In this document: positions 989 through 19,738 of the stretch, in pieces | Layout: every line of letters starts with the position of its first letter | How positions within the stretch are numbered: the stretch's first letter is position 1 | Source: Bdellovibrionales bacterium | GTDB lineage: Bacteria > Bdellovibrionota > Bdellovibrionia > Bdellovibrionales > JAMPXM01 | Reading direction: 5' to 3' | DNA length: 20,090 bases | Assembly: GCA_043746165.1 (NCBI GenBank) | Contig: JAYTRM010000225.1 | Span: forward strand, 1 to 20,090 | Position numbers and translations under genes: made by a program | Notes under the pieces: model-generated | Seen by the model: only the letters and a program-made list of their open reading frames with translations | The model's database searches: none | What the model was told of the DNA's origin: nothing

Positions 989-1023
989 TTGCCAATTAGA
1001 CAGTGTTGATAAAGGAAGACCGT

Positions 1024-2001: not shown

Positions 2002-2004
2002 CGG

Positions 2005-2649
2005 ATGAAGAAATTTTCCTGTCCTTCTTGCGGCGCTGAAGTTTTAATTCAATCAACGGCTACGATTTTCACCGTCTGTAAATACTGCAAGTCAACTCTT
2101 GTCCGTAAGGATACGGATCTTGAGTCGATTGGCAAAATGGCCGATCTTAAAGAAGATGCGTCTCCCCTACAAATCGGAACCTCGGGCAAATACCGAGCAG
2201 CGGGACTTGTTGCCAGCGACTTTCTCGTCATCGGTCGCGTTCGCGTCAGTTGGGAAGATGGCTTTTGGAACGAGTGGTTTGTACGCTTTGACGACGGTCT
2301 TGGAGGCTGGTTGGCCGAAGCCCAGGGCGATTACATGCTGAGTTTTGAAGTCACCTCGCCGGTCACAGTTCCGAAGCTCACTGACCTTGAGCCCGAAAGT
2401 GAAGTGACAATTGGAAAAATCAAATACTTAGTGAGCGATATCAAAACGGTTACCTACACTTTTGCCGAGGGTGAGCTACCGTTCATAGCGCCGCAAGGTT
2501 TCAAGGGCCAATCAGTCGACCTCGAGGCCGGCGAAAATGACTTTGCGTCGATCAGCTATAGCCAAGAGGGAAACGATGTCTTCGTCGGTCACTATATAGA
2601 GTTTGATGATTTTCATTTTCAAAACCTAAGGGCGATTGATGGCTGGTGA
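2005..2649 (+). CDS. zinc-ribbon + DUF4178-like protein (YdjG/YdjH-like)
   Basis: The N-terminal 4-Cys ribbon is CPSCGAEV...CKYCKST. The downstream region is aromatic/Trp-rich (WEDGFWNEWFVRFDDGLGGWLAEAQGDY), as in DUF4178. The gene starts 3 nt after the SPFH gene stop. Confidence 0.75.
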   Translation: MKKFSCPSCGAEVLIQSTATIFTVCKYCKSTLVRKDTDLESIGKMADLKEDASPLQIGTSGKYRAAGLVASDFLVIGRVRVSWEDGFWNEWFVRFDDGLGGWLAEAQGDYMLSFEVTSPVTVPKLTDLEPESEVTIGKIKYLVSDIKTVTYTFAEGELPFIAPQGFKGQSVDLEAGENDFASISYSQEGNDVFVGHYIEFDDFHFQNLRAIDGW

Positions 2650-4470: not shown

Positions 4471-5973
4471 ATGGCTGTTCTTTTTCTCATCTCAGCTTTT
4501 GTCGTTTCGACCTGCGGGCTCATCTACGAACTGGTCAGCGGCGCTCTGGCCAGCTACCTGCTCGGCGATTCAGTCACTCAGTTTTCGATCGTGATCGGCG
4601 TTTATCTCTTTGCGATGGGGCTTGGCTCATACTTGACGCGTTTTGTCCGCGGCAACCTCGCTCTGACTTTTGTTTCGATCGAAATCGTGGTCGGTGTGGT
4701 CGGCGGCTTTTCGTCCGCCGCACTTTTCTTGCTCTTTGCTCACGTCACGCATTTTCGCGTGGCGCTTTACTTCTTTGTCACTCTTTCTGGCGCTTTGGTC
4801 GGTGCCGAAATTCCATTACTTCTCAGAATCTTGCAAGACCAGTTTGAATTTAAAGAACTCGTCGCCAAAGTTTTTGCCTTTGACTACGTCGGGGCGCTGA
4901 TTGCCTCGGTTCTCTTTCCTCTCTTATTTATTCCGCACCTGGGCATGATCCGCACGAGCTTCTTTTTCGGCATGCTTAACGTCACAGTCGCGCTCGTGAG
5001 CATTCACGTCCTTGGGAAGAAATCGCGAGGGTTCCTGGTGCTGCGCGGAAGCGCGCTCACCGCACTTATTGCACTGGTGATCGGATTTATTTATTCGGAA
5101 AAACTCGAATCATTCGCCGAGGCCTCGGTTTTTCCTGGTCAGGCAGTTTTCGCAAAGACGACGAGCTACCAGCGCATCTTGATCACGCGGCAAGAAAACG
5201 ACATTCGACTTTTTCTCAATTCGCATCTGCAATTTAGCTCGCGCGACGAGTACCGCTACCACGAAGCCTTGATTCACCCGGGCCTGAGCTCGATTGCTAA
5301 ACCCGAGCAAGTTTTGGTACTCGGCGGTGGCGACGGTATGGCCGTGCGAGAAATCCTCAAAGAGTCCGCTGTCAAAGCCGTCACCTTGGTGGATCTCGAC
5401 GGCGAGATGACTAAGATTTTTTCAACTCTTGATTTTCTTCGCAAGCTCAACGGCAGCTCATTTACTGATCCGCGCGTGACCGTGATCAACGACGATGCGT
5501 TTTTATGGCTTAAGGTTCATCCCGAAAAAAAATTCGACTTTATCGTTTTGGATTTTCCGGATCCCGCCAATTACTCAATTGGCAAGCTCTACACTCTCAC
5601 TTTCTTTCGGCTGCTCCGCGAGGCTTTGGCAGACGGTGGACGGGTTGTCATTCAAAGCACCTCTCCCCTTGCCGCGCGTAAGTCTTACTGGTGCGTGGCC
5701 CATACGCTAGCGGCGGCCGGTTTTTCAGTCGTAACGCCTTACCATACTTACGTACCTTCGTTTGGCGAGTGGGGATTTGTTATGGGTTCCGAAACGCCAT
5801 TTCAACCTTCGCGTCTGGTGCCAGGCCTTAAATTTATCAGGCCTGAGTCGATCGCGGCGCTGCTTGAATTTCCGCTCGACATGGCCGAAGTCCCGACTGA
5901 GATCAATCGCCTCAACAACCAGGCGCTGGTTCGCTACTACGAAGCCGAGTGGTCAGAATTCATGGTGAATTGA
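4471..5973 (+). CDS. speE: polyamine aminopropyltransferase (spermidine/spermine synthase family) fused to an N-terminal polytopic membrane domain
   Basis: The C-terminal half carries the spermidine-synthase signature LVLGGGDGMAVREIL, DLDGEM and FDFIVLDFPDP. The first roughly 210 aa contain about 7 hydrophobic helices. The gene starts 8 nt after the DUF350 gene stop. Confidence 0.85.
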   Translation: MAVLFLISAFVVSTCGLIYELVSGALASYLLGDSVTQFSIVIGVYLFAMGLGSYLTRFVRGNLALTFVSIEIVVGVVGGFSSAALFLLFAHVTHFRVALYFFVTLSGALVGAEIPLLLRILQDQFEFKELVAKVFAFDYVGALIASVLFPLLFIPHLGMIRTSFFFGMLNVTVALVSIHVLGKKSRGFLVLRGSALTALIALVIGFIYSEKLESFAEASVFPGQAVFAKTTSYQRILITRQENDIRLFLNSHLQFSSRDEYRYHEALIHPGLSSIAKPEQVLVLGGGDGMAVREILKESAVKAVTLVDLDGEMTKIFSTLDFLRKLNGSSFTDPRVTVINDDAFLWLKVHPEKKFDFIVLDFPDPANYSIGKLYTLTFFRLLREALADGGRVVIQSTSPLAARKSYWCVAHTLAAAGFSVVTPYHTYVPSFGEWGFVMGSETPFQPSRLVPGLKFIRPESIAALLEFPLDMAEVPTEINRLNNQALVRYYEAEWSEFMVN

Positions 5974-5974
5974 G

Positions 5975-7633
5975 ATGCTATCGCGCCGCCAAGCTTTAAA
6001 GCAGATCACCGCGTTTGCTGCGCTCGTAGCTGGTGGTTTGACTCTGGTAAAACGTAAGAAACCAAGCGAGACTGATTTTCCAGTCAGACTTCTCGGCCCA
6101 ACATTAGCCGCCGGGCACCGCCTACGAAGCGGCGATAAATTTCCCGAGCCAAGTGCTACCCGCAAAGCTCAAGTCGTGATTGTCGGAGGCGGCATTGCAG
6201 GACTTTCAGCGGCGTGGCGACTCAAGAAAAAGGGAGCTACCGATTTTCACATTTTGGAGCTAGAGCCCGAGATCGGCGGTAATTCTCGTTCGGGCAGAAA
6301 CTCCGTCAGTCGCTATCCCTGGGGCGCCCACTACGTGACCTTGCTCAGTGAAGAAGCTAGCATTGCCCGCGAGCTTCTCTCCGAACTCGGCATTATCACC
6401 AGCCATCGCGGTGAGGCGACAACTTACAACGAATACGATCTCTGTCATGCTCCTCACGAACGCCTTTACATCGCCAGAAAGTGGCAAGAGGGACTTGTTC
6501 CCAAAATCGGCACCTCAGCCGAGGACACCGAACAGACAAATGAATTTTTTAGGCATGTCGAAGAAATGCGCTTCAAAAAAGGTCGTGATCAGAAGCCGGT
6601 GTTTGCGATTCCCCTCGAATTCAGCTCGCGCGATCCGGAGCTTTTAAAATTAGATCAGATCACAATCGCCGACTACATGTGGGCTCGCGGCTGGAATTCG
6701 CAGGCGTTGCATTGGTATGTTAACTATTGCTGCCGAGATGACTACGGAACTCCTCACACGCAAACTTCGGCTTGGGCAGGACTCCATTATTTTAGCTCTC
6801 GCCGTAGTCAAAGCGAAGGCGCAGCGGGAACTTCCGTCATTACCTGGCCTGAAGGCAACGGCCGTATCGTCGACGGACTCGAGAGTTTGATTCAAGATCC
6901 CAATCAAGATCCCAATCACGAACGTATTCACCGGGGGCAAATGGCGATTCGCGTACAGAACGTAAAAAGCGGGGTGGAGGTCGACGCGCTCGATACGAAA
7001 ACTGGTCTTGTGACGCGCTGGCAGGCCCAAGCAGTCATCGTGGCTTCACCACGGTTTATCGCGGCTCGCCTCGGGCCCGAGCTCACTGATCAACAGAGCG
7101 TTTTTTTAAAAGATCTCTCTTATTCCCCATGGGTTGTCGCCAACATCACATTAAAATCCTTACCCGTGAACAATCGACCTAACCCGGGCGCTCCGCTTTC
7201 GTGGGATAACGTTATTTATCAAAACGACTCGCTCGGCTACGTCGTCGCCAATCACCAGGACACGAAAATTCACTCTGGCGAAACCGTGTGGACATATTAC
7301 CGTCCCCTCGACGCACTTTCTCCGGCCGAGGCGCGCGAGGAGGCGATCAAGCGCCAGCCATCTGAGTGGCGCGAAATAATTTTAGCCGATCTCGGCGTCG
7401 CTCATCCTGATTTGACCGAGCTCATCACCTCGATGGATGTCTGGGTCTGGGGTCACGCGATGATTCGCCCGACGCCGGGTTTTATCTGGGGCGAAACCCG
7501 CCGGGCCATGCAGAAGCCGTTGGGTAAAATTCACTTTGCCCACTCAGACATGAGCGGCCTCTCGCTTTTTGAGGAAGCCAATTTCCACGGCGCACGGGCG
7601 GCCGACGAGGTCATAAGCCATGGCCTCACCTAA
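5975..7633 (+). CDS. FAD-dependent oxidoreductase (amine-oxidase/phytoene-desaturase superfamily) with twin-arginine (Tat) signal peptide
   Basis: The N-terminus MLSRRQALKQITAFAALVAGG contains the S-R-R-x-A-L-K Tat motif plus a hydrophobic h-region. The Rossmann dinucleotide motif VVIVGGGIAGLSAAWRL is followed by an acidic residue at the end of the second beta-strand (ILELE). The gene starts 1 nt after the speE-like stop. Confidence 0.85.
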   Translation: MLSRRQALKQITAFAALVAGGLTLVKRKKPSETDFPVRLLGPTLAAGHRLRSGDKFPEPSATRKAQVVIVGGGIAGLSAAWRLKKKGATDFHILELEPEIGGNSRSGRNSVSRYPWGAHYVTLLSEEASIARELLSELGIITSHRGEATTYNEYDLCHAPHERLYIARKWQEGLVPKIGTSAEDTEQTNEFFRHVEEMRFKKGRDQKPVFAIPLEFSSRDPELLKLDQITIADYMWARGWNSQALHWYVNYCCRDDYGTPHTQTSAWAGLHYFSSRRSQSEGAAGTSVITWPEGNGRIVDGLESLIQDPNQDPNHERIHRGQMAIRVQNVKSGVEVDALDTKTGLVTRWQAQAVIVASPRFIAARLGPELTDQQSVFLKDLSYSPWVVANITLKSLPVNNRPNPGAPLSWDNVIYQNDSLGYVVANHQDTKIHSGETVWTYYRPLDALSPAEAREEAIKRQPSEWREIILADLGVAHPDLTELITSMDVWVWGHAMIRPTPGFIWGETRRAMQKPLGKIHFAHSDMSGLSLFEEANFHGARAADEVISHGLT

Positions 7634-8714
7634 TCAGCAGCCCTGGATCAGATCGCGTCAGTTCGACGTTTGTTTTATTCTCGCGCCCGCATTTGCGACA
7701 AGTTTTTTTGTGCTTTTTTTCCGTCACTGGCTTCAGCCTTATGCCGAAGTGGGCCCTGTTGCCTGGCTCATGCTCGTTGTCGGGATTGATGTTGCGCACG
7801 TCTATTCTTCACTATTTCGAACCTACTTAGATCGCAATCTCAAGGCGAGACCTTTGCTCTGGCAAGTTCCGCTCGTTTGTTGGGTGATAGGAGCACTACT
7901 TTATTCGGTCAGACCTGAAATTTTTTGGTCGGGCCTCGCGTATTTTGCGGTTTTTCACTTCGTTCGTCAGCAGTACGGCTTTGTCATGATCTACTCACGC
8001 TTTGAAAAGCACACGAGATTGAGCCGCGCTCTCAATCAGTTGGTGATCTATGCCGCTACCGTTTACCCTCTTCTTTACTGGCACTCCCACCTCCCACGGC
8101 GCTTTGTTTGGTTTATCGAGGGCGATTTTTTTTTCGCGGTACCGGCCTCGGTCACAAGCACCTTTGGTTGGATTGAAGTTGCTTTGCTCAGCATTTACGC
8201 GGCTCGTGAAATCCGGGCGTACTGGTTTCATAAAAGCTTCAACCTCCCTCGCAACTTACTCATTCTGGGCACGCTCGCCTCGTGGACGATCGGCATCGTT
8301 TCGCTCAACAACGATCTAGCATTCACCATCACCAACGTAATATCGCACGGCATTCCCTACGTCGCTTTATTGTGGCACTACGGCAATCGCAAAGATCCCA
8401 CGCCGGGTTTTAAAATTCTCCGGCAAAATTTGTTCTGTGCTCGCTGGGTGCCGATTTTTCTCGGGCTTCTTTTGCTCTTAAGTTATCTCGAAGAAGGACT
8501 CTGGGATGGGCTCGTGTGGCGCGATCACCTGCAGCTTTTTCCCCAGTTCGCGGCTCTTCCAATTCTCACCGATTCGAATTTGCTCGTTGTTTTGGTGCCA
8601 TTTTTGGCTTTGCCGCAAGCCACACATTACTTGTTTGATGCTTTTTTGTGGAGAAGTACGGGTACCGATAATGGCTGGAAAAGCATCTTGTCAGGCGCGG
8701 GAGATTTAAAATGA
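7620..8714 (+). CDS. polytopic integral membrane protein of unknown function (about 8 TM)
   Basis: The 364-aa ORF is hydrophobic throughout, with no recognisable catalytic motif. It overlaps the upstream oxidoreductase by 14 nt and the downstream speH by 4 nt (ATGA), so it is embedded in the polyamine operon. Confidence 0.75.
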   Translation: MASPNQQPWIRSRQFDVCFILAPAFATSFFVLFFRHWLQPYAEVGPVAWLMLVVGIDVAHVYSSLFRTYLDRNLKARPLLWQVPLVCWVIGALLYSVRPEIFWSGLAYFAVFHFVRQQYGFVMIYSRFEKHTRLSRALNQLVIYAATVYPLLYWHSHLPRRFVWFIEGDFFFAVPASVTSTFGWIEVALLSIYAAREIRAYWFHKSFNLPRNLLILGTLASWTIGIVSLNNDLAFTITNVISHGIPYVALLWHYGNRKDPTPGFKILRQNLFCARWVPIFLGLLLLLSYLEEGLWDGLVWRDHLQLFPQFAALPILTDSNLLVVLVPFLALPQATHYLFDAFLWRSTGTDNGWKSILSGAGDLK

Positions 8715-9058
8715 CCTTCTCTGTCGGCATTCACCATCTCGTCGAACTCAAAGACTGCGACCCTCGCGCGATCAATGATCTTGAAGGGCTACGTTTGGCG
8801 CTTCTCAATGCCGTCGAAGCTTCAGGCGCCACGATCATCACCGATGTTTTTCACCCGTTTTCTCCGCATGGAGTGACCGGAGTCATCGTTATCGCCGAAT
8901 CCCATGTCTCGATCCACACCTGGCCTGAACTCGGCTATGCCGCACTCGACATTTTCACTTGCAGTCACAAAATGAACTCCCAACTCATTGTGGATCAATT
9001 GAAGGCTTTCACATGTTCGAAAACCCTGGAAGTCTCTAGTTACAGACGAGGACCCTAG
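8711..9058 (+). CDS. speH: S-adenosylmethionine decarboxylase proenzyme, small pyruvoyl type (SpeH/SpeD class 1)
   Basis: 115 aa. The conserved ...VIVIAESHVSIHTWPELGYAALDIFTC block is present. Glu63-Ser64 (codons 8897-8902) is the canonical self-cleavage site that generates the pyruvoyl group. Confidence 0.9.
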   Translation: MTFSVGIHHLVELKDCDPRAINDLEGLRLALLNAVEASGATIITDVFHPFSPHGVTGVIVIAESHVSIHTWPELGYAALDIFTCSHKMNSQLIVDQLKAFTCSKTLEVSSYRRGP

Positions 9059-9293: not shown

Positions 9294-9830
9294 ATGAAAT
9301 CATTTAGTGTCGTCGCTTTAACGTTCGCGGTCACCATCTCAACGGCTTTTGCAAAAGAACACTTTAAAGTCCACACGCACCAAGACGTGATCAAACGGTA
9401 CACCTATTGGAAAGTTGCGAGCGTGGTCGATTACTTCTCATTCCTTCAAGAGGCAGACGACGCAGCGAGGGAGAAAAAAATTCTCGCTTGCGATCCGAGC
9501 CTTGAGCAAGCGCGAGATATATTCGGCGGCGAACTTCACTCCCTCGCCGACGGCGCAAGGAGGCCTGAACTCGACCGCTATCTTAAAAATCCGGTGAGCT
9601 ACGTTGGTCGCATCAAGACATGCGTTGCCGACTGCAGTTGCAATGCCATCGCGATGGTCCTAGCCGACGCTGATCTCACGCTGAATGATAAGGCAGAACA
9701 CAACCGAAATAAAACAGATTTGGATGCGAGTATCAAAGCGCAGCCCAAGGATCAAGACCTCGTCTGCGCGAAAAAAATGACTTGGTACTGCGGCAGCGGC
9801 CTGCAGACTTATCTTTATAAAAGCAAATAG
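9294..9830 (+). CDS. secreted Cys-rich protein of unknown function
   Basis: The signal peptide MKSFSVVALTFAVTISTAFA is clear, with cleavage predicted before KEHF. The mature part has 7 Cys, so disulfides are likely. GAGGG is upstream of the start. Confidence 0.7.
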   Translation: MKSFSVVALTFAVTISTAFAKEHFKVHTHQDVIKRYTYWKVASVVDYFSFLQEADDAAREKKILACDPSLEQARDIFGGELHSLADGARRPELDRYLKNPVSYVGRIKTCVADCSCNAIAMVLADADLTLNDKAEHNRNKTDLDASIKAQPKDQDLVCAKKMTWYCGSGLQTYLYKSK

Positions 9831-9839
9831 GGAGCCTTG

Positions 9840-10400
9840 ATGAAACAATCCACGCCCATACCGGCTCACGTTGTACCTCTGAACTTCTCCCTAGCTTTTA
9901 TTATGGTCGTTGCAACAATTCTTGCAACGCCTAGGGCAGCCCGATCGCAAACTGATGATGAGCCGAAGCCTCATAAAAAGGGTCTGATCGACCAGGTCAG
10001 CGGCCAAGGCTTCGGCATGGCTGGCTGCGGTGTCGGATCTATTTTATTTGGCGAGACGCCTGGCCTCGCCCAAGTTGCTGCCTCACTCACCAATCAAATT
10101 TACTTCAACAACACCTTTGCTGGAACTTCGGGAACTTCCAACTGCGAAGACGCCGACCCTATCGACGCGAGAACAGCGCAAGTATTCATCGACTCAAACC
10201 GCGTCGCGATCGAAAACGATATCGCCAAAGGTAGCGGCGAGACTCTGCAGGCTTTTTTTGAACTCGCCGGTTGCAGCCCACGTGGTGAATCTACCTTAAG
10301 CCTTCATCGCCATTACCAAGAGATATTTGTTCCGGGTGCAAAAAGCATCGACGTAGTAAAATCGATTCGTCAATTCACAACCTGCTCGCGCCTAGGATGA
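9840..10400 (+). CDS. secreted small protein, DUF3015-like, paralog A
   Basis: GGGAG (9830-9834) is 5 nt upstream of ATG 9840. The ORF track starts at TTG 9837. There is a hydrophobic N-terminal signal/anchor. It shares GCG-x-GS, SGTSNC, IAKGSGET, LHRHY..IFP and a C-terminal C-x-x-LG with the next gene. Confidence 0.75.
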   Translation: MKQSTPIPAHVVPLNFSLAFIMVVATILATPRAARSQTDDEPKPHKKGLIDQVSGQGFGMAGCGVGSILFGETPGLAQVAASLTNQIYFNNTFAGTSGTSNCEDADPIDARTAQVFIDSNRVAIENDIAKGSGETLQAFFELAGCSPRGESTLSLHRHYQEIFVPGAKSIDVVKSIRQFTTCSRLG

Positions 10401-10432
10401 ATTTTGATGACCTGTAAGAAAGGACTTAGAAA

Positions 10433-10909
10433 ATGACAAAGCGCTTTGCCTACCTCACTTTTACGGCCATCACGCTCTTAGCTCACTGCTGCTGGGGCGC
10501 AAGCAGACCATACGGCTCGGGAGGCTGCGGCCTCGGAAGTTTAGTGATGGGTAAGGATGGCAACCAAGTTCTTGCGATGACTCTAAATGCGACGGGTACT
10601 CAGACTTTTGCCATAAGCTCGGGAACCAGCAATTGCATCGACGGCGGGCTCATCAAAAAGAAAAAACAAGTTCGCGCCTTCATAGAGATCAACAACCAAA
10701 AGCTTGCGAGCGAGATTTCAAAAGGCCGCGGCGAGACTGTCAGTAGTCTGTCAAGGCTTCTTGATTGCCAAGATGACCAGGCCTTTGCATTGGGTTTACA
10801 CCGCCACTACTCAACTATTTTCCCGACAGAAAATACGCCTGCCGCCGAGGTTGAGCACGCCATTCGAAGCGTGATCAAAATTGACCTCGCGCAAATCTGT
10901 CTCGGATAA
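10433..10909 (+). CDS. secreted small protein, DUF3015-like, paralog B
   Basis: The signal peptide is MTKRFAYLTFTAITLLAHCCWGA. The protein is colinear with paralog A and has the same four conserved Cys positions (GGCGLGS, SGTSNC, LLDC, ICLG). Confidence 0.75.
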   Translation: MTKRFAYLTFTAITLLAHCCWGASRPYGSGGCGLGSLVMGKDGNQVLAMTLNATGTQTFAISSGTSNCIDGGLIKKKKQVRAFIEINNQKLASEISKGRGETVSSLSRLLDCQDDQAFALGLHRHYSTIFPTENTPAAEVEHAIRSVIKIDLAQICLG

Positions 10910-10912
10910 CCT

Positions 10913-12739
10913 GTGCTTCGGACCCTAGGGATCATTATGATCCTGACCAGCTCGGTCAGCGCGGCCGGCCAGGTGGCCGAGCTTTCCAAGTCCTCGGCCT
11001 GGCAAAAGCTGAATCATTTTCACCGCGTTGATCCAGTGACGGAGCTGAAACGGAACCTCGAACTCTTTCGAAACTCGCAAGCTGATAGGGCTCAGATTAA
11101 CGACGATAGCCAACTTGAACAAAAGCCCGAATGCCAAATGCCGGCGAGATTTATCTTTTTCAAAAAAAACCTGCCGGAAGCCTCGAGCTGGCTGATGCCC
11201 CGTTGCCCGAAGTGGCAGCACTTCTCGCAAGGATTAGCGGCCAAGTCGGTCACCCTGGTTTTTTCAAGTTATTATCTAGGAAATCCGACTTCGGCATTCG
11301 GTCACACTTTTTTGCGGCTTAATCGCGACGATGTCGGGCACGAACATCAGAGCCTGCTCGATTCAGGTGTTGGTTTTGCGCTGAGTGCAACAAAACAAAA
11401 TTCTATTTCGTACCTATTGGGAGGAATGCTGGGCTGGAACCTCGGCGAGTTCTCGGTCGTCCCCTATTACTTGAAAGTTTTAGAGTACAACAATTTTGAG
11501 TCACGCGACCTCTGGGAGTATGATCTCAATCTAACGCCAGAGGAGATCGAACTCTTAGTCGCTCATCTTTGGGAGCTCGGCCACGCGCAAATTCATTATT
11601 CCTACCTCAACCACAACTGCAGCTCGTTAGTTCTGGCCGCTCTCGAGGCCGCAGCCCCGAGACTGAATCTCCTAGGCCGCCTACCGTTCTGGGTTTTGCC
11701 CGCCGAGTCCGTCAAGGTGCTCTACCAAGAACCGGGCCTAGTCGGGGGATTTCATTACCGAGCGTCAAAGCGTTCGCAATCTGAGTTCGCTCTCGGAGGC
11801 CTCTCACCTGGCGACCGCAAAGAAGTGACAGAGATTTTAGAAACCAACGCGGCACCGATTGTCCATGGCGATGATCCTGCGCGCGAGCTCGACACGGTGA
11901 TCGATTTCATCGATTATCGATATTTTAAAGAGCTTCTTAAAGGCGATGTCGACGTTCAAAGGCGAAAGCAAGCTGCGTTGGTAGCTCGCAGTCAACTTCC
12001 TGCAGAAGCTGGCTTTGATCAGCAAGCTTCGATTCCCGCACAGGAAATTCCGCAGACCTCCCACGCACCGTCTCGACTCCAGGTTGGCCAACTCATTTCA
12101 CGTCTCGGTGAACGCTCACTTCTTATCGGACAGCGCTTTGCGCTGCATGACCAACTCGATCCGCAACAGGGGTATCCCGAAAGTTCAGAAATCGGCTTTT
12201 TTGACTTCGGCATTCGAGTTCTAAAACAGCCTAGCGTGATCGAGGATAATCAGGGCACAATCCGGGTCGACCATCTCTACGCTTTAAATCTCAAATCATA
12301 CCCTGATCTCACACGGTTGATACCGACTTCATCATGGAATTTTCGTCTCGGCGCCGAACGAACGTGGGACGAATCTTGCCTCAACTGCGTCGCCGGCGTA
12401 ATCGGCGCGGCTTCTGGCGCAAGCTTTAGCGTTCATAAAAAATTGATCGCCACGATTCTCCTTACCGGTGACCTCTCCACTTCCACAGAGTTTTCCAGCT
12501 CACCAGTGAAAAGTCGCCTCGGTCCAGAATTCAACCTACGAGCTATAATCACTCCCCGCCTCGTCTTCAACATAAACTCAACGTATTTACATCTTTTCTT
12601 TGCCGGGCCACCCGACACCTACCGAGTGACTGAAGAGATTCGCTGGACTTTAGCGGAGCCGCTCGCCGCCGGCCTGAAGTTTCAGCAATTACCTCGCGGC
12701 GACGTCGAGTCGTCGGCAAGTTTATATTATTACTACTGA
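10913..12739 (+). CDS. large signal-peptide protein. The N-terminal periplasmic domain is possibly Lnb-N/DUF4105-like and the C-terminus looks like an outer-membrane beta-barrel ending in ...LYYYY.
   Basis: The GTG start is 3 nt after the paralog B stop. The signal peptide is MLRTLGIIMILTSSVSAAG. AFGHTFLRLNRDD resembles the motif I recall for DUF4105, but the family assignment is uncertain. The C-terminal third has alternating hydrophobic strands and an aromatic C-terminus, typical of an OMP beta-signal. Confidence 0.7.
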   Translation: MLRTLGIIMILTSSVSAAGQVAELSKSSAWQKLNHFHRVDPVTELKRNLELFRNSQADRAQINDDSQLEQKPECQMPARFIFFKKNLPEASSWLMPRCPKWQHFSQGLAAKSVTLVFSSYYLGNPTSAFGHTFLRLNRDDVGHEHQSLLDSGVGFALSATKQNSISYLLGGMLGWNLGEFSVVPYYLKVLEYNNFESRDLWEYDLNLTPEEIELLVAHLWELGHAQIHYSYLNHNCSSLVLAALEAAAPRLNLLGRLPFWVLPAESVKVLYQEPGLVGGFHYRASKRSQSEFALGGLSPGDRKEVTEILETNAAPIVHGDDPARELDTVIDFIDYRYFKELLKGDVDVQRRKQAALVARSQLPAEAGFDQQASIPAQEIPQTSHAPSRLQVGQLISRLGERSLLIGQRFALHDQLDPQQGYPESSEIGFFDFGIRVLKQPSVIEDNQGTIRVDHLYALNLKSYPDLTRLIPTSSWNFRLGAERTWDESCLNCVAGVIGAASGASFSVHKKLIATILLTGDLSTSTEFSSSPVKSRLGPEFNLRAIITPRLVFNINSTYLHLFFAGPPDTYRVTEEIRWTLAEPLAAGLKFQQLPRGDVESSASLYYYY

Positions 12740-12812: not shown

Positions 12813-14192
12813 TCAACGGACGATTTGTTTAAGTGCGTTGAAAAAATACGAGTCGATCTTTTTAAGGATTGTTCCTTCCATATCGAGCACGGCTTGACTT
12901 GGATTCATCGCCGGCGAGCCCTGTGTTTTGAGAACCCGCTGGCAGAACTCGTTGGCAACCGCCACAATCTTCGTCATTGGATGGATTTGCATCCGGCTCA
13001 TCCGATTCGGAAAGCCTTCACCGTCGCAACTCTCATGATGCTCGCGCACGATCCGGATCACGACCTCCGGCATCGAATTCGATTGACTTAGGACCTCGGC
13101 GCCACGGGTGGCATGTGTATCGTAAAACGCCCGAACGCTTTGCGGCCAATTCTCTCTTGGCGTATTCAAAATACCCGGATGAATATCGCGTAAGCCGATA
13201 TCATGAAGTAAAGCCGCGGCGGTGAGATTGAGTAAATCCGTTGGATTTTCCCAACCCAAAGCTTTGGCAATCATGACGGAGTAAACGCTGACACCGACAC
13301 CGTGACTAAAGAGGTTATCGACGTGCTGGCTTAGCATGTGCAAGAGTTCGTTCATTTCGGCTGATTCGGCCAAAAGGTTAACAGTCGACTGCACGTACGC
13401 CATCGAGCTCTCAAACAATGCGGTATCGAGTCCGTCTTTGGATAGTTGGTCGATAAAAACTTCGGACGTGTGACGAAGGATATCGATACGCCGTTCGTTA
13501 CGCACCGGATCGCTAACGACCGGCTTTGAGCGCCCCTTGAAATTTGTACCAAGGAAATGACGGAAATCTGCTCCGCGCAAAAATAAAAACTCAACGCCTT
13601 TGCCGCGAATTTCTTCCACTCGTTTATTAGTCAAATCAATCCCGCGGTGAGCGATCTTGACGAATTTCTTGACTGATAGCTGCAAAAATATGGGGTAGTT
13701 AGCAAACTTCGGTTGCGAGAACTCGCTGATCAGGATTTTCGCGTAATCATCGTCGAGTTCGGGTTCTGCTTGGCCCACGGAGATTTTCTGCCCAGCCGAC
13801 TTCGGGGAGGTCGATCTGCCAGAGGACATCTTCAAGCAGGCAGCGACTGCCTTGATGATACTTTCGCTTTCGATCGGCTTCATCACAAAAGCATCGGCAA
13901 GCCGTGACTCTGAATCCTGGCCGGCGACCTGACTTTGCAGAACTTCGGCCATATCTGTCATAAGGACGAGCGGCAGACTCGAATTTTCGCGGATGTATTT
14001 TGAAATCTCCAGACCGTCGACGTGCTCGCCGCCGACGTCGCAGACGACGATATCAAAAACCTGTTTTCGTATAAAAGTCATCGCTGTCTTAGAATCATGC
14101 GCCAGAACCACTTCATGGCCAAAGGCGGTGAACGTTTTTTGCAATTTTGTAGACGCACTCTCATCTTCGTCAATCAGTAGAATTCGACTCAC
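12813..14192 (-). CDS. response regulator: N-terminal receiver (REC) domain plus C-terminal HD-GYP-type phosphodiesterase domain (GFP variant of the GYP motif)
   Basis: REC has the acidic pair at the start (LLIDEDE), the phospho-acceptor Asp52 in DIVVCDV, LVLMTD and FVMKP. The HD domain has LLHDIGL (H330-D331) and HHESCDGEGFP (residues 385-395, nt 13008-13040). The GTG start overlaps the upstream stop (GTGA). Confidence 0.9.
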   Translation of the reverse strand: MSRILLIDEDESASTKLQKTFTAFGHEVVLAHDSKTAMTFIRKQVFDIVVCDVGGEHVDGLEISKYIRENSSLPLVLMTDMAEVLQSQVAGQDSESRLADAFVMKPIESESIIKAVAACLKMSSGRSTSPKSAGQKISVGQAEPELDDDYAKILISEFSQPKFANYPIFLQLSVKKFVKIAHRGIDLTNKRVEEIRGKGVEFLFLRGADFRHFLGTNFKGRSKPVVSDPVRNERRIDILRHTSEVFIDQLSKDGLDTALFESSMAYVQSTVNLLAESAEMNELLHMLSQHVDNLFSHGVGVSVYSVMIAKALGWENPTDLLNLTAAALLHDIGLRDIHPGILNTPRENWPQSVRAFYDTHATRGAEVLSQSNSMPEVVIRIVREHHESCDGEGFPNRMSRMQIHPMTKIVAVANEFCQRVLKTQGSPAMNPSQAVLDMEGTILKKIDSYFFNALKQIVR

Positions 14193-15238
14193 CTGAGCTC
14201 CGTTACGAGCGCCCGCTGTTCCGGTCGGCCCATTGCAAATAAAAATGGATCCTTGGCCTGGAGGTCTGTAAAATCTTGCTTGGACTTCAGTCCCCGCCAG
14301 TCGTTTTCAATCAAGATTTGGCCGATCGCTCCACCGAGGGTACTGCCAGGCCCAAGAAGTACCAGGTGGTCAGGTGCAAATTCTTTCAAAGCGACAGATA
14401 CGTCCGCGGTAAAATTGTATTTCTCGACTACTTGATCAACCAATGTGTAGCGATACAGGTTTTCGACATCTGTCGTGTACGGACTCCAAATGCAACCTCT
14501 TCCGTCAATCAAAGGAATTTCGGGACGAGCAAAAAGCTCGGGCTTTAAGAGTTCAAGCGCCCTGTTACTTGTCGATTTTAGCAATGGCGTATGGAAAGCT
14601 GCATGGTTGATCAGCTGAAAAGGATAATTCTCTTCGACCGGCAAAGCCTTGAGTAAAAGCGGAATTGCCGCTTTCGTCGCCCCGATCACCGCGTATCCGC
14701 CCAGATCAATTGAAACGTAACACTCACACCCGGCTTGGCGAGACACTTTCGCGATTGCATCTCGCACCAGCTCAATTCTCTTGGGAGACTTCACCCATTT
14801 CTCATCGACTACCGGATAAATCACTTGGCCGCCGATGACGTCTTCTTTCATCATCGAGCCCATGGTATTTACGACTTCAAACCCCCCGGCCCAATCAAGA
14901 CTTCCGCCAAACGCGGCGGCCAAGTACCAGCCCATAGAATTACCAGTGACCGCGACGATTTCAAATCGCGCGCGATCAATGGCCATGAAGTCGGCGTAAG
15001 ATGAGGCATATATCAACGCCGAAGCGTGTTCACCTTTGGTATGCAAATTAGGTTTAAAAATATCAGCCGAGTCGAGCTCGGTGATTGTTGGCACATTGAG
15101 TTTACGACGACGTTCATCGATATCAGCAATGAAGTCTTGAACCCCGCCACCATAATTACGGAGATAGCCCAACGTCTCCTTGGTGTAGGTTCCGCGCCCG
15201 GGGCAAATGACTACGACTCTTTTTTTCACCGCGTTCAC
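14189..15238 (-). CDS. FabD-family acyltransferase (malonyl-CoA:ACP transacylase-like fold), probably not malonyl-specific
   Basis: It is colinear with E. coli FabD. VVVICPGRGTYT matches FVFPGQGSQT. GNSMG, with nucleophile Ser101, matches GHSLG. NHAAFHTP matches VPSHCALM. The position aligning with the malonyl-carboxylate-binding Arg117 (VEMRGKF) appears to be Met (VNTMGSM), by eye alignment. The GTG start is 1 nt after the E1 gene stop. Confidence 0.85.
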   Translation of the reverse strand: MNAVKKRVVVICPGRGTYTKETLGYLRNYGGGVQDFIADIDERRRKLNVPTITELDSADIFKPNLHTKGEHASALIYASSYADFMAIDRARFEIVAVTGNSMGWYLAAAFGGSLDWAGGFEVVNTMGSMMKEDVIGGQVIYPVVDEKWVKSPKRIELVRDAIAKVSRQAGCECYVSIDLGGYAVIGATKAAIPLLLKALPVEENYPFQLINHAAFHTPLLKSTSNRALELLKPELFARPEIPLIDGRGCIWSPYTTDVENLYRYTLVDQVVEKYNFTADVSVALKEFAPDHLVLLGPGSTLGGAIGQILIENDWRGLKSKQDFTDLQAKDPFLFAMGRPEQRALVTELR

Positions 15239-15239
15239 C

Positions 15240-17450
15240 TTAAATTCTGTTGAGCAGCTTCAACGCACTCACGACAATTTCATCGCGACTCGGAAGACCT
15301 GCGGCCGCTGCGCGACCAAGAGGAATAAAGCAATCATCCGCTGCGACAACCTTGACGCGCGGACGGTTTTCTAGCTCTTCGGCAATCAGACCGCACATCC
15401 ACTCGCTCCACGAACCTGTCTTGCGGCATTCGTCAACGATCAGGAGATTCGGGCATTGAGCAATTTCTTTGGCGAGCGCCTGACGATCGATCGGCGCCAT
15501 CCACCGCATGTCGATAATTTTTGATTTTATCCCGTGCTCGCTTTCGAGAATTTGTGCCGCTTGCCGCGAGTAATAGGTGCCGTTTCCGTAGGTGATGATC
15601 GTGAAGTCACGGCTTTCGCCGTAGACCCCGAATTCACCCAGCGCAATTTTCTGATCGGGCGGCGGATAGTGAAACGTCCAGGCTTTGTCGTTTTCTTTAC
15701 CCAGGTCGCGAGTCATGTACAGCGCGATCGGCTCAACAAAGACCACCACCCGCCCCCGCTCCCAAGCTTCTTCGGTGCAGGTTCTGAGCATCTTCACGGC
15801 GTCTTCGCCATTTGACGGGACCGCGATGATGACACCGGGAATATCGCGAAATACCGCAAGCGAATTGTCGTTGTGAAAATGACCGCCGAAACCTTTTTGA
15901 TAAGGAAGGCCTGCGACCCGAATCACCATGCCATTGGTGAACTGGCCCTTAGAGAAAAACGCTAGGGTTGCCGCCTCACCGCGAATTTGATCCTCGGCAT
16001 TGTGAACGTAGGCTACGAATTGGATTTCGGGGATCGGCAAAAAACCATTATGGGCCATGCCGATCGCCGTTCCGAGAATCGTTTGCTCGTCGAGTAGCGA
16101 ATTGAAAACACGGCGGGGGCCAAAGCGCTTGTGCAGACCGTCGGTCACGTTGTACACGCCACCTTTTTGGGCGACGTCTTCGCCGAACACTACGGCACCA
16201 GGATATCTGGCTAGAGTTTCAAAGAGCGCAAAGTTGATGAGCTTTGCTAAATGCAGTGGGCTTTTAAGTTTCGCTGCGTCCGAGCCGAAAATCTCCGGCC
16301 AGTTTTCTTCTTGCGGAACCGGCGGGGATTTTTTCGGAAAATGGCAGGCGATCAGGCTTTCGCGCACTTCTTCTCGCTTGAGATACTTCGGCCGGGTTTT
16401 GGAATATTCGCCGATCGCGGCGATTTGGGTCTCGAGCGCTTGGTACATGTCGACGATCTCACCAGGACGCAAAAGGCCATTCTCGACGGCAATTCGCGCC
16501 GAATGAAGAAGTGGATCGTTAAATTCCGTCGCTTCGATGCGAGCCAAGGGGTGATAAGACATCTCCATGTCTGAACCCGCATGACCGAGCAGGCGCACGG
16601 TCTTCATGTGCAGAAAAACAGGCTTTTTGAAAGTTCGCGCAAATCGCTCGGCCTCGCGCGCGGCTCGCGTCACGTCGCACAGGTTGAGCCCATCACAGCG
16701 GATGTAGTGAAGACCAGAACGTTCGCCATACTGAGTTTCAAGCCACTGATGCGGCGTCGAAACCGATATGCCGATGCCATTGTCTTCACAGATCAACACC
16801 AGAGGGAGCGGCACGTTCTGGTGCGAAATCCACAACGCCGAATTGACCGCGCCAACTGCGGTCGAGTGATTGATCGAAGCGTCGCCAAAAGAACAAAAAA
16901 CCACGGCGTCGGCTGGCATCACCGCTGATTCGAGTTTGAGGTCTCGCGCCCGCCCAATTGACATCGCGGCTCCGACGGCCTTTGGCAAGTGCGATGCGAT
17001 GGTGCTGGTTTGCGGCGGCACCATGAGTGGGTAACTTCCAAAAACTTTATGCCTGCCGCCGGCGATCGGGTCGTCGCTTGAAGCCACAAACGACAACATG
17101 GTGTCGTAAAGTGGTGTCGAGCCGGGAATTTGTTTTGCCCTCTGAATCATGAACGCGCAGCTGCGGTAGTGAACAAAAGCCATGTCGGTGACGCGAAAAG
17201 CTTTTCCCCAGACTGCGTTGGCTTCATGGCCGGCACTGCCGATGGTGTAAAAGCATTCGTTTTGATTCTTTAAGATTCGTGCCCGCAAATCCATCTGCCG
17301 ACTCATCATCTGAGTCTCAAATAAGTCCAAGAATTCTGGCCCGGTGAGCCCGCTTTCGCTCAAGCCCGTGTGACTGCGCGGCTCCGGAAAGTGCTCTTTA
17401 CCAACGAATTCAACGAAATTTTTGTCTACGACCTCGGCTCGATTGTACAT
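15240..17450 (-). CDS. fused 2-oxoacid dehydrogenase E1 component (alpha and beta subunits in one 736-aa polypeptide), TPP-dependent
   Basis: The N-terminal half is E1-alpha-like (FGDASINHS...LVLICEDNGIGISV matches the TPP-binding region, ...CENNGYAIST). The C-terminal half is E1-beta-like (GEDVAQKGGVYNVTDGLHKRFGPRRVFNSLLDEQTILGTAIGMAHNGFLPIPEIQFVAY). No E2 or E3 gene is in the operon. Confidence 0.9.
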   Translation of the reverse strand: MYNRAEVVDKNFVEFVGKEHFPEPRSHTGLSESGLTGPEFLDLFETQMMSRQMDLRARILKNQNECFYTIGSAGHEANAVWGKAFRVTDMAFVHYRSCAFMIQRAKQIPGSTPLYDTMLSFVASSDDPIAGGRHKVFGSYPLMVPPQTSTIASHLPKAVGAAMSIGRARDLKLESAVMPADAVVFCSFGDASINHSTAVGAVNSALWISHQNVPLPLVLICEDNGIGISVSTPHQWLETQYGERSGLHYIRCDGLNLCDVTRAAREAERFARTFKKPVFLHMKTVRLLGHAGSDMEMSYHPLARIEATEFNDPLLHSARIAVENGLLRPGEIVDMYQALETQIAAIGEYSKTRPKYLKREEVRESLIACHFPKKSPPVPQEENWPEIFGSDAAKLKSPLHLAKLINFALFETLARYPGAVVFGEDVAQKGGVYNVTDGLHKRFGPRRVFNSLLDEQTILGTAIGMAHNGFLPIPEIQFVAYVHNAEDQIRGEAATLAFFSKGQFTNGMVIRVAGLPYQKGFGGHFHNDNSLAVFRDIPGVIIAVPSNGEDAVKMLRTCTEEAWERGRVVVFVEPIALYMTRDLGKENDKAWTFHYPPPDQKIALGEFGVYGESRDFTIITYGNGTYYSRQAAQILESEHGIKSKIIDMRWMAPIDRQALAKEIAQCPNLLIVDECRKTGSWSEWMCGLIAEELENRPRVKVVAADDCFIPLGRAAAAGLPSRDEIVVSALKLLNRI

Positions 17451-17504
17451 AGAATGAAATGCTACATTCCTGCAAAACTGAATAGCAAGCAGGCTTGAAG
17501 CTCC

Positions 17505-17564
17505 GGTGCAGTCCGTCGTTGCAGCCCGTCGTTACAGCCGGTGGGTGCAGTCCGTCGTTGCAGC
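17505..17564. repeat. intergenic direct repeats: identical 21-mer GGTGCAGTCCGTCGTTGCAGC at 17505-17525 and 17544-17564, built from 13-bp CCGTCGTT(G/A)CAG sub-units at 17513, 17526 and 17552
   Basis: Read directly in the 292-bp divergent region between the E1 operon start (17450) and the gcdH start (17743). A candidate regulator operator array. Confidence 0.6.
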
Positions 17565-17659
17565 TCGGGATTTGCGATTTGGTGTGACCGCAGCCAGGTC
17601 TGGGTATCGGTTTGAACCGACAGAAACCAATGAGCGGGACGCGCGGCCAGACGACGGGC

Positions 17660-17710
17660 CGCAACGGAATGTCCCCAGCCCCTTGCCCCCGTTGCGAAAC
17701 TGCGCGAAAC
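17660..17710. promoter_or_regulatory. 8-bp inverted repeat CGCAACGG (17660-17667) / CCGTTGCG (17689-17696) followed by tandem GCGAAAC (17694-17700, 17704-17710), just upstream of gcdH
   Basis: Read directly in the sequence. It is located 33-83 nt upstream of the gcdH ATG, where a promoter or operator would be expected. The function is inferred. Confidence 0.3.
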
Positions 17711-17742
17711 TTCACGCTTAGCCAACGTTAAGGAGACTTCAG

Positions 17743-18912
17743 ATGAAAGCGTACGAATCACTCAATTACTTGCAAGAAGATGGCTTACTGACGAGCGACG
17801 AGATCATGATTCGCGATTCCGTTCGCGATCTCGTCGATAAAGAAGTCATGCCGACTCTGCAGGCCGCTAATCGCGACGAGAAGTTCCCTGCGCACTTGAT
17901 TCCCCGCTTTGCGGAGATGGGTTTGCTCGGCTCGACCATTCAGGGGTACGGCTGCGCGGGCCTCGGGCATGTCGCGTACGGCTTGACGATGATGGAACTT
18001 GAGCGCGGCGACTCGGGCATACGCTCCTTTTGCTCCGTGCAGGGCGCGCTGGTCATGTATCCGATTTACACTTACGGCTCGGAAGCGCAAAAAGACAAAT
18101 ACCTCTCCAAACTCGCCAAAGCGCAATTGATTGGTTGCTTTGGCCTCACCGAGCCCGACGCAGGATCAAACCCTGGCTCAATGCGTACCGCTGCCGTTAA
18201 AGTTCCCGGCGGCTACAAGCTGAACGGCAATAAAATGTGGATCACCAACGGCTGCATTTCTGACATCGCCGTCGTCTGGGCTAAACTTGACGGAGAAGTC
18301 CGAGGTTTCATCATCGAAAAGGGCACTAAGGGCTTTTCGACCAGCACAATGAAGGGCAAATTCTCGCTCCGGGTCAGCGTCACTTCGGAGCTCCATATGC
18401 AAGACTGCGTTGTTCCTGAGGAGAATCTGCTTCCTAAGGGCGTTGGCCTCAAAGCGCCGCTGAGCTGTCTCACGCAAGCTCGCTACGGCATTGCCTGGGG
18501 CGTCTTGGGCGCCGCTAACCAGTGCTTCGACGTCGCCCTCAACTACGCAAAAGAACGGACGATCTTCGACGGAAAAGCACTTTCACACTACCAGCTGGCC
18601 CAGGCAAAACTCGTGAAAATGGCGCAAGAAATCACCAAGGGCAAACTGCTCGTCATTCAGGCAGGAAGACTCAAGGAAGCCGGTAAACTCGAGCCCCATC
18701 ACGTTTCACTTATTAAGATGAACAATTGCCGCGCGGCTCTCGATATTGCTCGCGATGCCCGCGACCTCCTCGGCGCCAATGGCATCATCGACGAGTATCC
18801 AGTGATTCGCCACATGATGAACCTCGAAACCGTGAACACTTACGAAGGTACCGAAGACGTTCACAGGCTTGTGATTGGCCAAGCTCTTACAGGGCAGGCG
18901 GCTTTCCGTTAA
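17743..18912 (+). CDS. gcdH: glutaryl-CoA dehydrogenase (acyl-CoA dehydrogenase family)
   Basis: AAGGAG is 7 nt upstream of the ATG. Long blocks are near-identical to eukaryotic and bacterial GCDH (GYGCAGLGHVAYGL, ELERGDSGIRSF.SVQGALVM.PIYTYGSEAQKDKYL, LIGCFGLTEPDAGS). The C-terminal YEGTEDVH contains the catalytic Glu. Confidence 0.9.
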   Translation: MKAYESLNYLQEDGLLTSDEIMIRDSVRDLVDKEVMPTLQAANRDEKFPAHLIPRFAEMGLLGSTIQGYGCAGLGHVAYGLTMMELERGDSGIRSFCSVQGALVMYPIYTYGSEAQKDKYLSKLAKAQLIGCFGLTEPDAGSNPGSMRTAAVKVPGGYKLNGNKMWITNGCISDIAVVWAKLDGEVRGFIIEKGTKGFSTSTMKGKFSLRVSVTSELHMQDCVVPEENLLPKGVGLKAPLSCLTQARYGIAWGVLGAANQCFDVALNYAKERTIFDGKALSHYQLAQAKLVKMAQEITKGKLLVIQAGRLKEAGKLEPHHVSLIKMNNCRAALDIARDARDLLGANGIIDEYPVIRHMMNLETVNTYEGTEDVHRLVIGQALTGQAAFR

Positions 18913-19738
18913 GTGTCCCTTTGAGCTCGCTCCAATAGAGCGGGCTCTGTGCGATGTTACCGTGCTCAAATCCCGGCAAAAGAATCAGCTTAAGGCGAGG
19001 AATCTCGGCCTTCAAATCAATCGAGTTTTGCACTGGCACGGTTGCATCCCGATCACCGTGAAAGATCAACACCGGTGCTTTAACTTGGGCGAGCCATAAG
19101 TTTTGTTGAAGCTTGTATTTCAAAATAAAATTAAGCAGAAACTCTGGCAAAAATGGGAGCGTTCGTCGCGCCATACGCCCCATGCTGTAGTAAGGCGACT
19201 CCAAAACTAAGAGGTCGCAGCCCTGAGCCGATGCCAAGTAGCTCGCTAAACCGGTGCCGATCGAACGACCGTAAATGACAAATTGCAGCCCCCTTGCCTT
19301 GGCTTCGGCAGAGGCCTTTTGCCCAAACATATCGGCCAGGCTTAGAAGCTGCAGCTGTGAAGAAATGGCCCCGGTAGACTTGCCGTAGCCAGGGAAATCC
19401 ATGATCCAAACAACGGAATTTGTATTTTGCGCGAGTTCCTCGGCGACCTCGCCCCAGGATGATAGATTTCCGGCATTGCCGTGAAAATACAAAATTAACG
19501 AATGGGGCTTATCGGGCTCGAAAATCAGACTATGGATTTTCTCGTCTCCGCCACTCACCGTCAGGTCGAGAGTTCTCTCGCTATAGGCCGTCTTGAATTG
19601 GAAATGGAAGGCATCGGGCAGAGCATCAGCGACGAAAATAAGCTTTTCCTGAAGCACAAAGAGCACCAGGAGAAAAATGGCCAGTAAAGTAGCAGCGAGG
19701 ACGAGGTACGAAAGAATCACGGTTTTTACATTTCCCAC
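18887..19738 (-). CDS. membrane-anchored alpha/beta-fold hydrolase (ABHD-like serine hydrolase)
   Basis: The GTG start has an N-terminal TM (VILSYLVLAATLLAIFLLVLFVL). The oxyanion motif is HGNAGN, the nucleophile elbow is GRSIGTG, the acid is in HGDRDATVP and the His is in GFEHGN. The 3' end overlaps the gcdH 3' end by 26 nt (convergent). Confidence 0.8.
   Translation of the reverse strand: MGNVKTVILSYLVLAATLLAIFLLVLFVLQEKLIFVADALPDAFHFQFKTAYSERTLDLTVSGGDEKIHSLIFEPDKPHSLILYFHGNAGNLSSWGEVAEELAQNTNSVVWIMDFPGYGKSTGAISSQLQLLSLADMFGQKASAEAKARGLQFVIYGRSIGTGLASYLASAQGCDLLVLESPYYSMGRMARRTLPFLPEFLLNFILKYKLQQNLWLAQVKAPVLIFHGDRDATVPVQNSIDLKAEIPRLKLILLPGFEHGNIAQSPLYWSELKGTLNGKPPAL

Follow-up and report, generated by a model that had tools for sequence, protein, structure and literature searches.

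2-Oxoadipate is a common intermediate of lysine, hydroxylysine, and tryptophan breakdown. The human E1 component acting on it (DHTKD1) borrows DLST (E2o) and DLD (E3) (bioRxiv 10.1101/2020.01.20.912931), and glutaryl-lipoyl adducts build up on the lipoate of E2o unless they are cleared by the serine hydrolase ABHD11 (PMC12643935). In the Pseudomonas gcdR-gcdH-gcoT locus, a LysR gene is divergent from an operon led by glutaryl-CoA dehydrogenase (GCDH), whose other gene supplies glutaryl-CoA (PMC6667623). According to a statement cited in PMC7645780, Pseudomonas putida converts 2-oxoadipate to 2-ketoglutarate instead. In the bacterial literature that we found, the step from 2-oxoadipate to glutaryl-CoA is unassigned or bypassed. 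Here we analyze a 20,090-bp metagenome contig (ENA k141_2027988; "the window" refers to this whole stretch), the closest relatives of which are metagenome-assembled genomes of Bdellovibrionota. It encodes a fused alpha-beta E1 component of a 2-oxoacid dehydrogenase (15240-17450, minus strand), a FabD-like acyltransferase (14189-15238, minus strand), and, divergent from E1, a GCDH (17743-18912, plus strand). We tentatively propose, with a confidence that falls somewhat short of an even chance, that these three proteins form a catabolic module leading from 2-oxoadipate via glutaryl-CoA to crotonyl-CoA.

Conserved neighborhood of the E1 and FabD-like genes

The 389-aa product of 17743-18912 matches human GCDH over its full length with an E value of 1e-127, and the next acyl-CoA dehydrogenase/oxidase class gives 1e-72 or weaker. 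The equivalents of the carboxylate-binding Arg94, of Ser98, and of the catalytic Glu370 are kept, and the R-S-x-x-S-V-Q and YEGT motifs are conserved. By these features the protein is a bona fide glutaryl-CoA dehydrogenase. A first-pass annotation of the same DNA, made from the letters and their reading frames, had overlooked this gene, which lies outside the coordinates it covered and is the main functional clue to the locus.

Related loci were collected by a pattern scan built on a 14-sequence alignment, using one genome per species, which returned at least 584 relatives of the FabD-like protein. The 83 loci examined comprise the best 80 of these (at least 584) relatives and three metagenomic loci. 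The carriers are found in Bdellovibrionota, Oligoflexus, Marinimicrobia/Fidelibacterota, Alteromonadales (Colwellia, Thalassotalea, Shewanella, and Pseudoalteromonas), Oceanospirillales, and Alphaproteobacteria. In every examined locus with upstream DNA, and thus across five or more bacterial lineages, the E1 gene lies directly upstream of the FabD-like gene. The gap between them is estimated at approximately 10 nt (median), and many pairs overlap; the FabD-like protein is the obligate partner of this E1. GCDH adjoins the pair in 60 of the 83 loci, and 15 of the 23 loci lacking it are short-flanked. Its position varies: it is divergent from E1 in Bdellovibrionota; in Gamma- and Alphaproteobacteria and in Bacteriovoracaceae it precedes E1 and the FabD-like gene in the same orientation, with 5-30 nt between genes; and it lies downstream of the pair in Marinimicrobia. 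Three different arrangements of the same genes argue for selection on a shared function rather than for inherited synteny, and GCDH as the conserved partner suggests a catabolic role and a dicarboxylic acyl group of five carbons. After all neighbors of the examined loci were clustered, no other widely conserved partner of the pair was found.

Three less widespread neighbors are in line with this catabolic reading. In 22 gammaproteobacterial loci GCDH and a LysR regulator gene are divergent. Genes of the HGLS family (PF07063, 2-oxoadipate dioxygenase/decarboxylase) occur in five gammaproteobacterial loci and adjoin the module in four of them (L055, 3494-4291; L068, 9154-9993; L070, 9061-9891; L078, 9328-10143; and L039, 15483-16328, for the five genes). 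In eight Marinimicrobia loci a homocitrate-synthase-like gene stands between the FabD-like gene and GCDH (for example L022, 9002-10126); its 375-aa product is without the LeuA regulatory domain and scores 407 bits against the TIGR02146 cut-off of 413.55. Among ten loci without a detected GCDH, some of them short-flanked, ten neighbors inspected by eye seem unrelated (membrane, HflK/C-like, HflX-like, and P450-like proteins). Genes for E2, E3, a lipoyl protein, acyl carrier protein (ACP), or ketosynthase were found neither in the window nor within approximately 10 kb in six gene-annotated related loci. The first-pass annotation had described the E1 as lacking adjoining E2/E3 partners, and this agrees with what we found; an E2/E3 pair immediately upstream of E1, which it had considered, is not present in the window.

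A hint that the two proteins associate physically comes from P0239, a 595-aa protein of the representative library in which a linker rich in Ser, Pro, and Ala connects the C-terminal (Transketolase_C) region of an E1 with an entire FabD-like domain, apparently a natural fusion of the Rosetta-stone type. The composition of P0239 suggests a high-GC or eukaryotic source. Another hybrid, P0188, joins the middle of E1 to the middle of the FabD-like protein and was set aside as a probable assembly or deletion artefact.

In the window the E1 and FabD-like genes are followed on the minus strand by a gene for a REC-HD-GYP response regulator (12813-14192). All three open reading frames were recovered exactly, tightly packed, at the coordinates given in the first-pass annotation, and both junctions read as described there. 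The E1 stop codon TAA (15242-15240) is separated by one base from a GTG codon (15238-15236). An alternative in-frame GTG at 15229 has a better-placed Shine-Dalgarno-like AAGGTG 6 nt upstream and gives a product of 346 aa instead of 349 aa; the public gene call (P0001, 346 aa) also begins there, and this is probably the true start, judging from the sequence. Whichever GTG serves, the spacing between E1 and the FabD-like gene is 1 to 10 nt. The FabD-like stop TGA (14191-14189) overlaps the GTG of the regulator (14192-14190) as GTGA, with GGAG 5 nt upstream. Promoter- and terminator-like sites between 12600 and 17800 occur at or below the frequency expected from shuffled sequence. Nothing there speaks for separate transcription; co-transcription of the three genes is plausible, and the regulator is probably co-transcribed in this organism. 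An internal promoter for the regulator was considered and rejected: the only promoter-like site (14173-14144) falls within the regulator gene itself, and site counts are at chance level.

Catalytic residues of the fused E1 and the FabD-like protein

Pfam places E1_dh, Transket_pyr, and Transketolase_C on the single 736-aa E1 chain, which confirms the earlier assignment of a fused alpha-beta 2-oxoacid dehydrogenase E1. The protein falls under every NCBIfam cut-off for characterized pyruvate dehydrogenase (PDH), branched-chain 2-oxoacid dehydrogenase (BCKDH), acetoin dehydrogenase, and transketolase equivalogs by a wide margin, with a best score of 115.9 bits against 321. The beta half resembles archaeal and bacterial PDH beta subunits and BCKDH beta subunits to about the same degree (1e-41 to 1e-33); the alpha half has diverged strongly (E about 1e-12). 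The 2-oxoglutarate dehydrogenase (OGDH) E1 model reaches only E = 0.091, placing this E1 outside the OGDH class, although it may function in the manner of a DHTKD1-type E1a. The residues expected of an active enzyme are all present. The thiamine diphosphate (ThDP) motif G189-D190-A-S...E222-D223-N224 is invariant in 73 full-length relatives, and so is alpha-His290, which aligns with His263 of human PDH E1alpha (in HGH). Beta-Glu455 and beta-His526 align with Geobacillus beta-Glu59 and beta-His128, respectively, and both are 100% conserved in the same 73 relatives. Classically, the alpha-His and beta-His are assigned to the reductive acylation of lipoamide, and the beta-Glu activates ThDP. The E1 is thus catalytically complete, and with the two His residues invariant it looks made for acylating a lipoyl arm.

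For the FabD-like protein, Pfam, Acyl_transf_1 included, gives no match at E <= 0.01; the TIGR00128 (FabD) score is 32.7 bits against a cut-off of 260.9, and the matches to FabD and PksC in the PDB are weak. Public records label it ACP S-malonyltransferase. An AlphaFold model built on 70 relatives has a pLDDT of 96.1, and its best structural matches by Foldseek are all FabD or polyketide acyltransferases (TM 0.71-0.75, about 18% identity), supporting the FabD fold named in the first-pass annotation. In single-sequence and profile alignments Ser101 corresponds to FabD Ser92 (GNSMG vs. GHSLG) and His216 to His201, and both are invariant in the family. The family is distinct and of moderate size, with 335 representative clusters at E <= 1e-10, and carries the motifs PGRG(S/T)Y, GNSMGWY, GGQ, AFHTPL, DGRG, and LLGPG.

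His91, Gln11, and Arg117 of FabD, the last of which binds the malonyl carboxylate, are all replaced. It had been suggested earlier that Met takes the place of Arg117, to be checked by structure-based alignment: Met126 stands at this position in seven alignments with five different FabD-family structures, and Arg is not conserved. Across 38 diverse members, which share 28-49% identity with the window protein, the column (read by eye) holds M, L, T, V, A, or I and never R. The further claim that loss of this Arg signals a non-carboxylated substrate does not follow, as Arg15 of the PGRG loop is nearly invariant across the family. The register of the P-G-x-G motif after strand 1 would place Arg15 at FabD Gln11, an assignment that stays inferential because the N-terminus lies outside the alignments. 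If 2-oxoadipate is the starting substrate, the loss of Arg117 would reflect a longer dicarboxylic chain with its distal carboxylate bound at another site, possibly Arg15, rather than an acyl group without a carboxylate.

A proposed route from 2-oxoadipate to crotonyl-CoA and its alternatives

In the reaction sequence that we propose, 2-oxoadipate would be decarboxylated on the ThDP of E1, for which we propose specificity toward this substrate, and E1 would reductively glutarylate a lipoyl-lysine arm borrowed from the E2 of another 2-oxoacid dehydrogenase complex. Ser101 of the FabD-like protein, with His216 as base, would take the glutaryl group from S-glutaryl-dihydrolipoyl and pass it to CoA, the cell's own E3 would re-oxidize the borrowed arm, and GCDH would turn glutaryl-CoA into crotonyl-CoA and CO2. 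The FabD-like step would be needed because a foreign E2 core would handle the non-cognate glutaryl group poorly. We infer 2-oxoadipate as the substrate from the linkage to GCDH and from the neighboring 2-oxoadipate-related genes; the use of lipoyl domains in trans, as well as the direction and the acceptor of the acyl transfer, is likewise putative. The first-pass annotation held that a lone E1 cannot deliver its acyl group to CoA by the usual route; this falls away if the E1 borrows E2 and E3, for which human DHTKD1 is a precedent (bioRxiv 10.1101/2020.01.20.912931).

A narrower part of this proposal is that the catalytic core of E2 has given way to a Ser-His transacylase of the FabD fold, which would move the acyl group from acyl-dihydrolipoyl to CoA via an acyl-serine intermediate. 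Taken by itself this is doubtful, and we offer it as a serious candidate at most. In AcoC-type acetoin dehydrogenase E2, a hydrolase-like region after the lipoyl domain performs the acyl transfer. The post-lipoyl part of NF011457, the model for acetoin dehydrogenase E2, matches an alpha/beta hydrolase, so a serine-hydrolase-type fold in an E2 role is not unprecedented.

Several points weigh against the 2-oxoadipate module. The function is read from sequence, predicted fold, and synteny, and the E1 sequence does not reveal substrate specificity. The E1 belongs to the alpha/beta PDH/BCKDH class and not to the OGDH/DHTKD1 class that handles 2-oxoadipate in mammals. To our knowledge FabD-fold enzymes act on phosphopantetheine thioesters of CoA or ACP, not on lipoyl thioesters. 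A suitable E2 and E3 elsewhere in these genomes is presumed. Arg15 possibly binds the distal carboxylate of a longer dicarboxylic acyl chain, and the motif register is what this idea stands on. In eight loci the flanks are adequate and yet no GCDH lies in the vicinity, and the HGLS and homocitrate synthase neighbors are found in a minority of loci only. The HGLS-like proteins, at about 270-280 aa, match only part of the 386-position HGLS profile and have no NCBIfam match.

The alternative that survives best, unlikely as we consider it, makes the FabD-like protein a hydrolase that clears glutaryl groups from borrowed lipoyl arms and so protects the host complex, analogous to ABHD11, with the host E2 core itself making glutaryl-CoA. 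By its glutaryl-lipoyl thioesterase activity ABHD11 keeps the 2-oxoglutarate dehydrogenase complex functional (PMC12643935). The FabD-like protein has a conserved Ser-His dyad, and its strict pairing with E1 is equally consistent with a repair partner. However, hydrolysis would yield glutarate and GCDH needs glutaryl-CoA, and no glutarate CoA-transferase or CoA-ligase gene is conserved beside the pair in the examined loci; moreover, translational coupling at 1:1 is more suggestive of a step in the main line than of repair.

It is quite improbable that the E1 works with no lipoyl partner at all, as a decarboxylase or carboligase (for example converting 2-oxoadipate to glutarate semialdehyde or an acyloin), with the FabD-like enzyme acting on a later CoA or ACP thioester. 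E1 components are capable of non-oxidative decarboxylation, and no lipoyl protein is encoded nearby, both in keeping with this idea; both reductive-acylation His residues are, however, invariant in the 73 members, and the examined loci hold no aldehyde dehydrogenase or CoA-ligase gene conserved beside the pair.

The model of the first-pass annotation, which we now regard as very improbable, has E1 pass a branched or short acyl group to the Arg-less FabD-like protein and from there to ACP as a starter unit, with the HD-GYP regulator tying the pathway to c-di-GMP. The replacement of Arg117 by Met fits this model, as Arg replacement is a feature of starter-unit acyltransferases, and it can also call on the beta half of E1, about as similar to BCKDH as to PDH, and on the overlap of the regulator start with the FabD-like stop. 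The conserved neighbor is nevertheless GCDH (60 of the 83 loci) and not ACP, KAS III, or a branched-chain acyl-CoA dehydrogenase, and no ACP or ketosynthase gene accompanies the pair. The family also keeps an xAFH motif before the catalytic His, which in polyketide synthase acyltransferases accompanies acyl groups unbranched at the alpha carbon, and none of the 83 other loci contains the regulator, whose homologues are found elsewhere. Finally, an ordinary FabD paralogue whose adjacency to E1 is functionally meaningless, as the public ACP S-malonyltransferase annotation would have it, is hardly credible and is already contradicted by the FabD score (32.7 vs. 260.9 bits), the missing Acyl_transf_1 match, the replacement of Arg117, His91, and Gln11, the separate family of 335 clusters, and the constant position directly downstream of the same E1.

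If the proposed 2-oxoadipate module is correct, a widespread dedicated module would supply a step now missing from lysine and tryptophan catabolism in bacteria; predatory Bdellovibrionota, Alteromonadales, and the abundant marine Marinimicrobia are among its carriers. Such an assignment would also set right a systematic mis-annotation, as thousands of entries are named ACP S-malonyltransferase or 2-oxoisovalerate dehydrogenase. Should a FabD-fold transacylase indeed stand in for the E2 core, this would be a previously unrecognized architecture for oxidative 2-oxoacid decarboxylation, shared by five or more bacterial lineages. If the FabD-like protein takes its acyl group from lipoyl arms, the module would show a new way to complete a 2-oxoacid dehydrogenase reaction and would be the bacterial counterpart of the recently discovered glutaryl-lipoyl problem of mitochondria. 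We found no paper on this bacterial module in a literature search that left out most subscription journals.

Regulator, flanking genes, and comparison with known systems

The regulator (459 aa) matches Pfam Response_reg, HD_5, and HD, and both its REC and HD_5 domains score above the Pfam cut-offs. The REC domain has an intact phospho-acceptor pocket (Asp52, Thr79, and Lys105), the HD motif is H330-D331, and the HD-GYP signature reads HHESCDGEGFP (13014-13046, minus strand; residues 383-395), in which Phe replaces Tyr to give a GFP variant. The stretch that links the REC and HD-GYP domains, approximately 160 residues long, has no family match. Compared with RpfG-type REC-HD-GYP regulators, the phospho-acceptor pocket and the HD and HHExxDGxG motifs are alike, and the differences are GFP in place of GYP, the unannotated middle region, and homologues of only 31-34% identity. 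These closest homologues lie in other gene contexts; none of the three contigs carrying the nearest ones has a FabD-like gene, and two of the three include DNA upstream of the homologue. Outside the window the regulator was seen only on two 100%-identical contigs from other samples; the 83 other loci examined all lack it, and a metagenome scan for relatives returned one distant REC match only. The first-pass annotation was right about its REC-HD-GYP identity and its start/stop overlap, but the link it drew between nucleotide signaling and the pathway is not borne out: any such coupling would be local to this lineage at most, given the absence from 83 loci and the other contexts of the homologues. 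The regulator is probably a recent lineage-specific passenger or a local regulator outside the conserved mechanism, and its interest is local.

The divergent intergenic region between E1 and GCDH (17451-17742) contains a repeat array with a 13-nt period and an inverted copy. Four copies at 13-nt spacing lie at 17505-17567. TGCAGYCCGTCGT is present in three exact copies within the four or five units of the array, and an inverted copy with one mismatch is found at 17651-17663, about 90 nt away. In 100 shuffles, none reaches five matches to the motif. It is absent from all other loci examined and confined to contigs of this lineage, and the array may be an operator, a candidate suggested by its sequence and position.

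On the far side of GCDH, an alpha/beta hydrolase of 283 aa with a hydrophobic N-terminal segment (18887-19738, minus strand) converges on GCDH, and the two 3' ends share 26 bp. The part of the AcoC-type acetoin E2 model NF011457 that follows the lipoyl domain (profile positions 133-219) matches this hydrolase. The protein was considered as an ABHD11-like partner of the module and ruled out, being unconserved beside the pair in other loci. Beyond the regulator, the stretch 9294-12739 (plus strand) encodes a family-less 178-aa protein, DUF3015 paralogues (9837-10400 and 10433-10909), and a protein with Lnb_N and DUF7840 (10913-12739); the gene for the last converges on the regulator gene, their stop codons being 73 nt apart. 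A polyamine-like gene string with overlapping or abutting junctions (4471-9058, plus strand) includes a membrane-fused spermidine-synthase-like protein (500 aa), an FAD amine-oxidase-like protein (552 aa), a family-less membrane protein (364 aa), and a small AdoMet-decarboxylase-family protein (115 aa). The tightly packed genes at 1003-3976 (plus strand) form a probable operon: the first encodes an SPFH/Band-7 protein carrying a SHOCT tail, and the next two encode DUF4178 proteins in which CxxC pairs resemble zinc ribbons.

Each part of the module has a described relative from which it departs. Bacterial PDH and BCKDH E1 enzymes (Geobacillus 1W85, Thermus 1UM9, and Pseudomonas 1QS0) and fused 'BkdA' proteins share the domain order, the ThDP motif, the Glu, and the two His residues with the window E1, which differs from them in its divergent alpha half, its scores below the equivalog cut-offs, its lack of E2/E3 in the operon, and its FabD-like partner. 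FabD and the Arg-less polyketide starter or loading acyltransferases resemble the FabD-like protein in the two-subdomain fold, the GxSxG nucleophile elbow, and the catalytic His. Relative to FabD, Arg117 is replaced by Met in a variable, hydrophobic column, GHSLG becomes GNSMG, Gln11 becomes Arg15, the GGQ and DGRG motifs are additional, and there is no ACP or synthase context. AcoC-type acetoin E2 offers the likeness of a serine-hydrolase-type fold used for E2 acyl transfer, but AcoC has its own lipoyl domain and a fold other than that of the FabD-like protein. The layout of the Pseudomonas gcdR-gcdH locus recurs in the 22 gammaproteobacterial loci with a divergent LysR gene, which is likened to GcdR by layout alone; in place of a glutarate CoA-transferase, the supplier of glutaryl-CoA here would be the pair of E1 and FabD-like proteins. 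The closest parallel in function would be the mammalian 2-oxoadipate complex, which likewise has a dedicated E1 without its own E2/E3, glutaryl-CoA that is consumed by GCDH, and a serine enzyme that handles glutaryl-lipoyl. The window E1, in contrast, is of the alpha/beta class in one chain and not of the OGDH class, with 2-oxoadipate as its putative substrate, and its serine enzyme, unlike ABHD11, has the FabD fold instead of the alpha/beta-hydrolase fold and is genetically welded to E1.

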